A DNA stretch of 11,196 bases from a virus, in the UHGV virus genome UHGV-0300947. One strand, given 5' to 3'. Position 1 is the stretch's first letter, and the number at the start of each line of letters is the position of its first letter. The notes below the pieces were generated by a model. The model made no database searches and was not told the DNA's origin. It saw only the letters and a list, made by a program, of their open reading frames with translations. Below are positions 1-7,023 of the stretch, in pieces. A program made the position numbers and the translations under genes.

Positions 1-163
1 CTACATCACGTTGACGCTTCCGCATATCAGCGATGATGGATGTGGCTTTATCGCGCTGCTCTTTGTAGGCGATTGCATTATCACGGTAATGATTAACAGC
101 CCATGACAGGCAGACGATGATGCAAATAATCAGAGCGGAGATAATCGCGGTGACTCTGCTCAT
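1..163 (-). CDS. Rz: Rz i-spanin, 5' portion only (gene continues beyond the window start)
   Basis: Reverse-complement translation from ATG at 163-161 gives [54 protein letters not shown], matching the recalled lambda Rz N-terminus with its signal-anchor. The start overlaps the R stop as ATGA. Rz1 would lie beyond the window. Confidence 0.85.
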
Positions 164-636
164 ACCTCAATCTCTCTGACCGTTCCGCCAGCCTCTTTGA
201 ATTTTGCAATCAGGTTGTCAGCCTTATGCTCGAACTGACCATAACCAGCGCCCGGCAGTGAAGCCCAGATATTGCTGCAACGGTCGATTGCCTGACGAAT
301 ATCACCGCGGTCAATCATCGGTAAAGCGCCACGCTCTTTAATCTGCTGCAATGCCACAGCGTCCTGACTTTTCGGAGAGAAGTCTTTCAGACCAAGCTGC
401 TTACGGTAGGCATCCCACCAACGGGAAAGAAGCTGGTAGCGTCCGGCGGCTGTTGATTTGAGTTTTGGGTTTAGCGTGACAAGCTTGCGAGGGTGATCGG
501 AGTAATCAGTAAATAGCTCTCCGCCTACAATGACGTCATAACCATGATTTCTGGTTTTCTGCCGTCCGTTATCAGTTCCCTCTGACCACGCCAGCATATC
601 GAGGAACGCCTTACGTTGATTATTGATTTCCACCAT
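160..636 (-). CDS. R: Endolysin R (lambda-type lytic transglycosylase)
   Basis: 158 aa [54 protein letters not shown]..., near-identical to the lambda R protein as recalled. It overlaps the S 3' end by 17 nt, as in lambda. Confidence 0.97.
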
Positions 637-943
637 CTTCTACTCCGGCTTTTTTAGCAGCGAAGCGTTTGATAAGCGAACCAATCGAGTCAGTACCGAT
701 GTAGCCGATGAACACGCTCGTTATATAAGCGAGATTGCTACTTAGTCCGGCGAAGTCGAGAAGGTCACGAATGAACCAGGCGATAATGGCGCACATCGTT
801 GCGTCGATTACTGTTTTTGTAAACGCACCGCCATTATATCTGCCGCGAAGGTACGCCATTGCAAACGCAAGGATTGCCCCGATGCCTTGTTCCTTTGCCG
901 CGAGAATGGCGGCTAACAGGTCATGTTTTTCTGGCATCTTCAT
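620..943 (-). CDS. S: Holin/antiholin S (class I holin, dual-start S107/S105)
   Basis: 107 aa [42 protein letters not shown]... matches lambda S. The Met1-Lys2-Met3 dual-start motif is present (ATG at 943-941 and 937-935). Confidence 0.97.
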
Positions 944-1067
944 GTCTTACCCCCAATAAGGGGATTTGCTCTATTTAATTAGGAATAAGGTCGATTACTG
1001 ATAGAACAAATCCAGGCTACTGTGTTTAGTAATCAGATTTGTTCGTGACCGATATGCACGGGCAAAA

Positions 1068-1097
1068 CGGCATGAGGTTGTTAGCGCAACCTCATGC
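1068..1097 (-). other. Perfect 12-bp stem / 6-nt loop hairpin in the late leader upstream of S
   Basis: ggcatgaggttg-ttagcg-caacctcatgcc is a perfect inverted repeat. On the sense (-) strand it is followed by GTTTTGCCC. Function unknown. Confidence 0.5.
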
Positions 1098-1477
1098 CAC
1101 CCGCTTTCACGAAGGTCATGTGTAGAAGGCCGCAGCATAACTATCACTGATGAATTCAGGATAGCCAGTGGCTACGGCTCAGGTTGGGTTGTGGCGGTCG
1201 GTGCTGAACTCCGACTTAATGACGATAGGCGTGTACCGACGCCTCGTTTTACTTCCTCCGCTTTCACGGCTTCACCCTAGACCAGCTTTACGAAATCCTC
1301 GTAAACCTAACCGCGGCAGATATGACCGGCACGGTGTGCCATATCACGGACCGGCGGGTGTCTCGTTCACCTGATTAACGCATCAGCCTGCGTATTCACC
1401 ACAACGATAAGAGTACTGCGCGGCACCTTTCACCAATTCCGCGAGGTCTGCGGGTTCAATGCTCTTACCTGTTGTGC

Positions 1478-1522
1478 AAACAAAAAAGCCACCGTTGCAA
1501 CTTAAGAGTCACTAACGGCAGC
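1478..1522 (-). terminator. tR'-like intrinsic terminator of the late leader transcript
   Basis: On the - strand GCUGCCGUU...AACGGUGGC can pair as a 9-bp stem (two G-U pairs) and is followed by TTTTTTGTTT. Sequence after the T-run (GCACAACAGGTAAGAGCATTGA) resembles the lambda tR' flank as I recall it. Confidence 0.5.
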
Positions 1523-1526
1523 TTAC

Positions 1527-1562
1527 CTTCTAATTATGGCTAAATGGATAATTGCATGTCAA
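1527..1562 (-). promoter_or_regulatory. Candidate late promoter pR' (Q-dependent late promoter with qut region)
   Basis: On the - strand: TTGACA (plus 1562-1557), 17-bp spacer, CATAAT (plus 1539-1534). The -35 overlaps the last Q codons and the Q stop lies in the spacer. The initial transcribed region runs into the tR'-like terminator about 50 nt downstream. Confidence 0.5.
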
Positions 1563-2058
1563 GGTTTTTAACAGCAACATGCTTAACTTTCTCAACACGT
1601 TTACGCATTTTGAAAGCATTTTGCATTGGCTGGTATAAAACAAATAATGACGCTTTCAGGATGTCGTCAATTTCGTTTCTACAGGTTGCCAGTGAAGGTT
1701 TTCTCCATCCCTCGCCACCACGTCCACACATCTTGCGTGGCTTTGCAGTCGCGTGATAGTAGGATGCAATTGCTCGCTTAGATGAACCATGAGCGTAGTA
1801 GCTGAGGAGGATGCCAAAGGCTTTCTTGTCAATGTACATGACGGAATCAACGACCTGAGAAATCAACATTCCATCATCATCATTACACATTGGCCTTGTC
1901 ATAATTCTTCCCGGCTCTACGCTCTCCATGAACTTCGCTATTACGCTGCTCATGCGCTTTTCCAGACGACCTGAATAAACCCATGCGCCCCACAGTTCAA
2001 GCCAGCCATTCAGCCACTCGTGCTGCTCTTTGGTGAGGTTTAGTTCTCTTATGCTCAT
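1540..2058 (-). CDS. Q: Late-gene antiterminator Q, non-lambda type (phage 21/82 or DLP12 QuuD-like family)
   Basis: 172 aa, positioned between ninH and pR'/S. Contains W-x-x-WGAW and RPMCNDDDGML motifs that I recall from QuuD/phage-82-type Q proteins. It does not resemble lambda Q. Start ATG overlaps the ninH stop (ATGA). Confidence 0.8.
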   Translation of the reverse strand: MSIRELNLTKEQHEWLNGWLELWGAWVYSGRLEKRMSSVIAKFMESVEPGRIMTRPMCNDDDGMLISQVVDSVMYIDKKAFGILLSYYAHGSSKRAIASYYHATAKPRKMCGRGGEGWRKPSLATCRNEIDDILKASLFVLYQPMQNAFKMRKRVEKVKHVAVKNLDMQLSI

Positions 2059-2243
2059 CGTCTTCCCCTCTTGCCTTGTTTGACCATCAGGACGCCGTTA
2101 ACTATTACGTGACGCTCGCCTTTGCTGTCTCGGTTGTACTTGAGCACTGTTCCTCTTGCGCAGGAAAGCATCCTCGCCACTTCGGTCTGATTGCCTCGTG
2201 TCTGGATAAGAAGCTCTGGTATCGTTTGAATTGTGGCGTTCAT
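2055..2243 (-). CDS. ninH: NinH-like small HTH protein
   Basis: 62 aa MNATIQTIPELLIQTRGNQTEVARMLSCARGTVLKYNRDSKGERHVIVNGVLMV... resembles lambda NinH (recalled ...IPDMLVEAYGNQTEVARRLKCSRGTVRKY...AIVNDVLMV). Overlaps rusA stop and Q start by ATGA. Confidence 0.8.
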   Translation of the reverse strand: MNATIQTIPELLIQTRGNQTEVARMLSCARGTVLKYNRDSKGERHVIVNGVLMVKQGKRGRR

Positions 2244-6703: not shown

Positions 6704-6782
6704 TGTGGATTGATCCAGTAATGACCTCAGAATTCCATCTGGATTTGTTCAGAACGCTCGGTTGCCGCCGGGCGTTTTTTAT
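6704..6782 (+). ncRNA. oop: oop-like antisense RNA with its terminator, overlapping the 3' end of cII
   Basis: Candidate promoter TTGAGT (6669-6674), 17-bp spacer, CATAAT (6692-6697). GC-rich dyad aacgctcggttgccgccgggcg (6753-6774) followed by TTTTTTATT. Length (about 77 nt) and sequence match the lambda oop RNA as recalled. Confidence 0.6.
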
Positions 6783-7023
6783 TGGTGAGTCCATCAAGCG
6801 CATACTTAAAAGCCCTGCTAATCGGACTGATGTCTGATGCCATTCCGAAAGCACACAAGACCGAAGCAATAAATCTCCAGTCCGTTCTGCTTATCTTCGA
6901 TTCATGACAGCCAATCATCTTTGCCAGACCGCGCTGGGTAATAGCTGACAGATTGATAAGTAAATCTGTTTCTGCGCGATCAACGTCACGCTGTGATAGT
7001 TTGCTGTAACTTGTTCTTTCCAT
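6727..7023 (-). CDS. cII: CII-like transcriptional activator (mosaic: non-lambda N-terminal DNA-binding part, lambda-type C-terminus)
   Basis: 98 aa. The C-terminal TNKKRPAATERSEQIQMEF equals the recalled lambda CII C-terminus. The N-terminal 80 aa (MERTSYSKLSQRDVDRAETDLLINLSAITQRGLAKMIGCHESKISR...) is HTH-like but divergent from lambda CII. Confidence 0.8.
   Translation of the reverse strand: MERTSYSKLSQRDVDRAETDLLINLSAITQRGLAKMIGCHESKISRTDWRFIASVLCAFGMASDISPISRAFKYALDGLTNKKRPAATERSEQIQMEF

Follow-up and report, generated by a model that had tools for sequence, protein, structure and literature searches.

The locus examined here raises the question of how a late-gene switch is built when an antiterminator gene that is not of the lambda type stands directly upstream of a lysis cassette that is, and whether such a combination is new. 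It lies in an 11,196-nt stretch of the viral genome UHGV-0300947, here called the window, whose minus strand carries all of the relevant genes; features are on this strand unless otherwise indicated. From its sequence, the module is very probably the ordinary late-gene switch of a lambdoid prophage, constructed on the plan of phage 21. The cassette is already known and common, having been published or annotated in CUS-3, Sf6, HK75 and phage L: about 80 bases hold the promoter, pause site and terminator, and the Q-binding site is a known variant. As a finding it matters little, since the phage 21 design is known and widespread, and the only mildly new aspect is a covariation, across the protein family, between residues of Q and bases of its binding site, from which a recognition code may be predicted.

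The antiterminator gene and its setting

The genes of the minus strand follow the order Rha/antirepressor-like gene (roi in the CUS-3 annotation), ybcO-like gene, rusA, ninH and Q, followed by S and R; Q closes the nin/early-right region and immediately precedes the late promoter and the lysis genes. Window positions 940-2100 match phage CUS-3 (from E. coli K1 RS218) with 100% identity; in the CUS-3 record the open reading frame is annotated as gene Q, and S is marked as well, as are the boundary sequences bsq4 (window 1539..1476) and bsq3 (1184..944). Of the whole window, the best phage record covers 71%, and for this reason only the Q-to-S segment is equated with CUS-3. At 95% identity or more, the module from Q to the terminator tR' was retrieved in 418 records when 5,426 complete E. 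coli genomes were searched, and at least 598 IMG/VR matches to Q-derived peptide patterns, confirmed by tblastn, represent relatives of Q.

The Q gene (1540..2058) encodes a protein of 172 residues that belongs to the Q21 family, as indicated by its translation, by the CUS-3 annotation, by a Pfam match to PF06530 (Phage_antitermQ; E=1.6e-25) and by phmmer matches to the solved Q21 structures 6jnx and 6p18 (E~1e-91, residues 1-162), to which it is about 86% identical. Phage 21 (6P18-6P1C, 6JNX; genome OL657228) provides both the same protein family and the fold template. The Pfam search of Q returned no match to PF03589, the lambda Q family, which lambda Q itself matches at 6e-58, and none to PF06323, the family of Q82. 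The initial annotation was right in calling the gene non-lambda, lambda Q being a member of the unrelated family PF03589 (PMC9388147), but its assignment to a joint 21/82/QuuD family holds in part: QuuD of DLP12 also matches PF06530, while Q of phage 82 forms the separate family PF06323, without sequence similarity to Q21 (PMC9388147).

Pairwise alignment with phage 21 DNA divides the gene into two parts. Sliding identity is about 98% over codons 1 to ~88 (1795..2057), corresponding to the N-terminal part that in the Q21 structures supplies elements of the ring at the exit channel of RNA polymerase (RNAP; PMC6606751). [quoted passage not shown] The cassette extends to promoter position -1 and is enclosed by near-identical flanks. 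In Q21 the bases are contacted by His95, Ala124, Arg127 and Arg128, with Arg113 in the minor groove (Shi et al., PMC6606751); the aligned Q of the window keeps Ala124, Arg127 and Arg113, but has Arg95 and Asn128. The divergence of phage L from Q21 is likewise concentrated after residue 94 (Zaworski et al., PMC8022706).

Within the gene, a possible CII box of an antisense paQ promoter, TTGCgtggctTTGC (1733..1746, plus strand), occupies the position of the annotated phage 21 paQ CII site, and the window encodes a lambda-type CII (6727-7023, PF05269). The box is a perfect consensus, with a possible -10 element TAGGAT at 1760-1765 (plus strand), and occurs once in the window, where chance alone would give 0.83; the candidate is retained as positional homology only, with low confidence.

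Late promoter, Q-binding repeats and their covariation with Q

The late promoter pR' is formed by TTGACA (1562-1557) and CATAAT (1538-1533), separated by an 18-nt spacer, a suboptimal length that had initially been counted as 17. It matches the consensus at 11 of 12 positions and is the only such match in the window at one mismatch or fewer, where 0.09 would be expected by chance. The -35 hexamer (1557..1562) lies inside Q codons 166-168 (ctt gac atg), coincides in position with the -35 annotated in phage 21, and is invariant in 79 IMG/VR loci carrying the same Q, as is the -10 hexamer (1533..1538). The stop codon of Q, TAG (1542-1540), falls at -16..-14, and the last seven Q codons are overlapped by this sigma-70 promoter, which is homologous to phage 21 pR'. 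A near-consensus promoter at the 3' end of Q was correctly recognized from the outset. Transcription is predicted to start at a G (1526), 7 nt after the -10 element, by homology with the phage 21 start, which likewise is the base preceding TAAGCT.

The phage 21 genome (OL657228) has the -35, QBEu, QBEd, -10, start site, pause element (SDPE) and terminator of pR' annotated, and the layout of the window is the same: a -35 element, two tandem 8-bp QBE subsites ending at -12, a -10 element and the SDPE TAAGCTG at +2..+8. In the register of phage 21, QBEu is AATTATCC (1546..1553; -27..-20), corresponding to ATTGAGCA, and QBEd is ATTTAGCC (1538..1545; -19..-12), the counterpart of AATGAGCA; the latter contains the Q stop codon and shares its last base with the first base of the -10 element. 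The tandem repeat occurs only once in the window (0.07 expected by chance). Both subsites differ from those of phage 21 at the same positions, with G4 replaced by T and A8 by C, and where the phage 21 specificity group combines TGAGCA with His95/Arg128, the window combines TTATCC/TTAGCC with Arg95/Asn128. The protein is thus of the same family as Q21 but of a different predicted specificity. Further differences from phage 21 concern the -10 element (CATAAT versus AACACT), the spacer (18 versus 17 nt) and the end of Q, which in the window is ten residues longer and overlaps the promoter, whereas that of phage 21 stops 6 nt before the -35 element.

For phage L the difference in the QBE has already been published: an identical likely QBE, AATTATCC/AtTTAgCC, has been proposed (Zaworski et al., PMC8022706). 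The same variant module is found in phage L (gene 23), Sf6 (gene 59), HK75 and CUS-3; Sf6 and HK75 are about 97-98% identical to the window over the shared part from Q to tR', and their records annotate pR', a qut site and tR' at homologous positions. Across the 79 IMG/VR loci the -35, QBEd, -10, SDPE and terminator hairpin are essentially invariant, while QBEu position 6 is polymorphic (T in 33, G in 46), the discriminator varies (TAGAAGG, TAGAGGG, TAGCAGG and TAGCTGG) and the terminal T-run comprises 6-8 bases. The sister phages also differ from the window by single bases at QBEu position 6 and in the discriminator, and in the length of the T-run.

The ten additional C-terminal residues of Q, VKNLDMQLSI (1540-1569), are dual-coded: the -35 element encodes Leu-Asp, QBEu encodes Leu-Ser/Ala and QBEd encodes Ile and the stop codon. 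In relatives, a Ser/Ala polymorphism in the tail mirrors the T/G alternative at QBEu position 6. The tail is dictated by the DNA elements of the promoter and the QBE.

The relationship between protein and binding site was followed in 45 loci from different species (genome contigs). Residue 128 and QBE position 4 are strictly associated, Arg occurring with G in 30 loci and Asn or Lys with T in 14, with no exceptions (Fisher 9e-12). Residue 95 is similarly associated with position 8: Arg occurs with C in 19 loci and other residues (His, Tyr or Leu) with A in 24, the sole exception being locus L090, with Arg95 and A; position 8 of QBEd is promoter position -12, and part of this covariation could therefore reflect promoter constraints instead of contact with Q. 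For both associations, the effects of phylogeny and of recombination inside Q are only partly accounted for. In neighbour-joining trees calculated with both residues masked, the protein and DNA states switch in step, at least six times for the 128/position 4 pair and at least four times for the 95/position 8 pair, and all four combinations of the two residues occur in nature, with TGAGCA, TGAGCC, TTAGCC and TTAGCA. The covariation supports the identification of the repeats as the QBE and that of the module as a specificity dialect distinct from phage 21, in which TTAGCC would be read by Arg95/Asn128 in place of TGAGCA by His95/Arg128.

A module functionally identical to that of phage 21, in which the changes in the repeat and at residues 95 and 128 represent neutral drift and the two Q proteins are interchangeable, would be compatible with the high overall identity of the proteins, with the identity of SDPE and terminator and with the description of the Sf6 promoter by its annotators as 'nearly identical to phage 21'. 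Drift is nevertheless an improbable explanation for a change of both repeats at the same two positions, which moreover covary with published base-contacting residues over at least four to six independent switches, with zero and one exceptions, and for a divergence that is concentrated in the DNA-binding half of the protein and in the promoter.

It is somewhat more likely than not that the Q21 family uses a simple modular recognition code, giving rise to several mutually orthogonal Q/QBE pairs: at residue 128, Arg would read G and Asn or Lys would read T at position 4, while at residue 95, Arg would read C and His, Tyr or Leu would read A at position 8. There are hints of additional code positions at residue 124, where Arg pairs with TGGAC in the QBE, and at residues 123-124, where Glu-Glu pairs with TTACCC; the Glu123/Glu124/Lys128 class always occurs with ATTTACCC (13 IMG/VR loci). 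In a single locus from Edwardsiella hoshinae (L121), in which the promoter lies downstream of Q, the otherwise invariant Arg127 is replaced by Gln and the QBE consists of ATTGGCAC twice, with A in place of C at position 7; the Gln127/A7 pair may represent a third code position.

A family-wide Q/QBE code was not found in the literature searched, although published work notes that phage L differs from phage 21. The covariation of the 95/128 pair with positions 8 and 4 lends independent in silico support to the contacts published for Q21 and DNA. For prophages that share a cell, it also predicts which of them are able to switch on one another's late genes and which are not; Stx2c phages with Q21 proper are among those concerned. 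It further suggests orthogonal antiterminator/promoter pairs for use in synthetic circuits.

Leader, pause element and terminator

The SDPE of the window, TAAGCTG (1519..1525; +2..+8), is identical to the annotated element of phage 21 and doubles as the 5' arm of the terminator stem; a TAnnnT pattern 11-12 nt after QBEd is kept across the family and across genera. The terminator tR' (1482..1524) consists of a hairpin at +3..+41 (1524-1486), followed by UUUUUUGUUUG, with the T-run at 1487-1482 (+40..+45), and the terminated RNA is predicted to measure about 45 nt. On folding, the hairpin reaches -20.2 kcal/mol (z=-4.8), a value equalled by none of 200 shuffled sequences. A generic terminator scan did not call tR', because its stem is long and bulged, whereas explicit folding did.

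The terminated leader of lambda (6S RNA) measures about 194 nt, against the ~45 nt predicted here, and the shortness of the leader had at first been regarded as unusual. The stretch from SDPE through T-run (1525..1482) is, however, 100% identical to the SDPE and tR' of phage 21, including hairpin and U-run, and a short leader is simply the phage 21 architecture, which has a leader of about 45-50 nt. The hairpin and the compact packing of the Q-specific qut elements proposed in the initial annotation are both present, while the T-run, placed there about 50 nt after the start, begins slightly earlier, at +40. In the phage 21 genome the terminator is annotated at +3..+50 on the basis of earlier work (PMID 1704887), and 21tR' has been used in vitro (PMC6606751).

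A mechanism for the module can be proposed by homology with the work on phage 21 (10.1101/651190; PMC6606751), and its start site, pause position, Q binding and read-through are predictions of this kind; data on Q-dependent read-through of tR' and on QBE binding come from phage 21 itself only (PMC6606751; 10.1101/651190). Q would be expressed from the final gene of the early-right operon, and pR' would fire constitutively. Without Q, sigma region 2 would re-bind the -10-like TAAGCT at +2..+7, causing RNAP to pause near +14 to +18 and then to end at the hairpin and U-run with an RNA some 45 nt long. When Q is present, two of its protomers would bind to the tandem repeats AATTATCC/ATTTAGCC (-27..-12) and dock on the paused RNAP. 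One of them would form a ring on the exit channel for RNA, and the short nascent transcript would thread through this ring. The ring would block the formation of hairpins and so allow RNAP to pass tR' and continue into S, R and the late operon. The lambda system needs a -35-like element, whereas promoters of the phage 21 type are without one (PMC6606751).

The terminated transcript might, in addition, act in trans as a small RNA in lysogens, as does StxS, which also derives from a constitutive, prematurely terminated pR' transcript and shows that the terminated leader of an Stx phage can be a functional Hfq-binding small RNA (PMC7547250). The high conservation of the leader sequence would agree with such a role, but the functions of the SDPE and the terminator already account for it. 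StxS originates from a leader of a different kind, a 258-nt RNA that is cut down to 74 nt and has a free seed, while the ~45-nt RNA of the window is predicted to fold nearly entirely (+3..+41) into one hairpin, with no single-stranded seed, and no Rfam family matches the Q-to-S interval. With a leader that is essentially all hairpin, a StxS-like small RNA was set aside as quite unlikely.

Least credible of all is a late promoter and terminator located elsewhere, with TTGACA-18-CATAAT and the hairpin as incidental features: although the HK629 record marks another 'putative pR'' downstream of that phage's first terminator and the start at 1526 is set by homology only, the unique promoter of the window and its terminator are the positional homologues of the experimentally characterized pR' and tR' of phage 21, their elements are invariant in the 79 loci while neighbouring bases vary, and the distance from QBEd to SDPE is constant at 11-12 nt across genera.

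Mosaic joints and downstream cargo

In this switch of the phage 21 type, the T-run is a mosaic joint behind which the cargo varies. Among the 79 IMG/VR loci the T-run is followed by lambda-like sequence in 35, as in the window, by tRNA-Asn in 31, as in phage 21 and Sf6, and by another sequence in one, while the remaining 12 diverge earlier, downstream of the -10 element (11 with a leader of the HK629 type and one off the leader pattern). These alternative continuations identify the T-run as a real recombination junction.

In the window, the junction is followed by a 26-nt lambda-like stub (1456..1481); the blastn match, which includes the T-run, aligns window 1487..1456 with lambda 44776-44807 at 90.6% identity. 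The stub gives way to a 262-bp filler (1194..1455) in which blastn found no match to lambda; in the whole Q-to-S interval a tRNA scan detected no tRNA and an Rfam search no match at E<=1. The filler is unannotated in CUS-3 and IME10, and the same slot in phage 21 and Sf6 holds tRNA-Asn and tRNA-Thr. Short stretches of 60-110 nt within the filler resemble, at 85-92% identity, sequences from scattered Aeromonas, Acinetobacter and Hafnia phages.

Lambda-like sequence resumes at 1193, from where 1193..47 corresponds to lambda 44936-46082 at 96.8% identity and comprises the S upstream region, holin S (943..620), endolysin R (636..160) and the start of Rz. Holin S matches PF05106, and the R reading frame (160-636) gave no Pfam match at E<=0.01 even though its DNA belongs to the segment ~97% identical to lambda, lambda R included. 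The lysis cassette is hence of the lambda type, as initially described. The resumption of lambda-like sequence at tR' was also correctly noted as a recombination junction, but extends over 26 nt before the non-lambda filler intervenes. Nor is this junction the only one: Q codons ~89-172 and the promoter up to -1, divergent from phage 21, mark further boundaries, and the DNA-binding half of Q and the QBE appear, from the alignments, to move jointly, as a single cassette flanked by conserved sequence.

With lambda the module has in common the regulatory logic of Q, pR', 6S RNA and tR' and the genome position, as well as the lambda-like sequence after the T-run and the S-R genes. Downstream of its terminator phage 21 carries tRNA genes and a pinholin/SAR-endolysin cassette in place of the lambda S and R of the window, and the sister phages Sf6 and L carry tRNAs where the window has the lambda-like stub and the 262-bp filler.

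Loci of the HK629-type subclass (HK629 itself, L004, 1062-1922, and 11 of the 79 IMG/VR loci) possess the same Q, -35, QBE and -10, but diverge immediately after the -10 element, for example where CATAAT is followed by ATTCACATATGCTG, and their leader contains an SDPE-like TATGCT and a terminator of its own, GCCCACCTCCTGTGGGCTTTTTT. Next comes an HNH endonuclease gene, followed by a copy of the leader and terminator of the 21 type that lacks a promoter and corresponds to window 1526..1378. In the HK629 record, 'pR'' is assigned to a site other than the Q-adjacent promoter.

Finally, inverted-repeat arms, CACAACAGGTAAGAG and CTCTTATCGTTGTG, flank a variable core of about 50 nt after tR' (window 1398-1476). 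As a significant structure the inverted repeat (1476..1398) was discarded, the fold z values being only -1.3 and -1.6 relative to shuffled sequences. The same arms, enclosing a different core, are shared by lambda (L005, 1089-1160).
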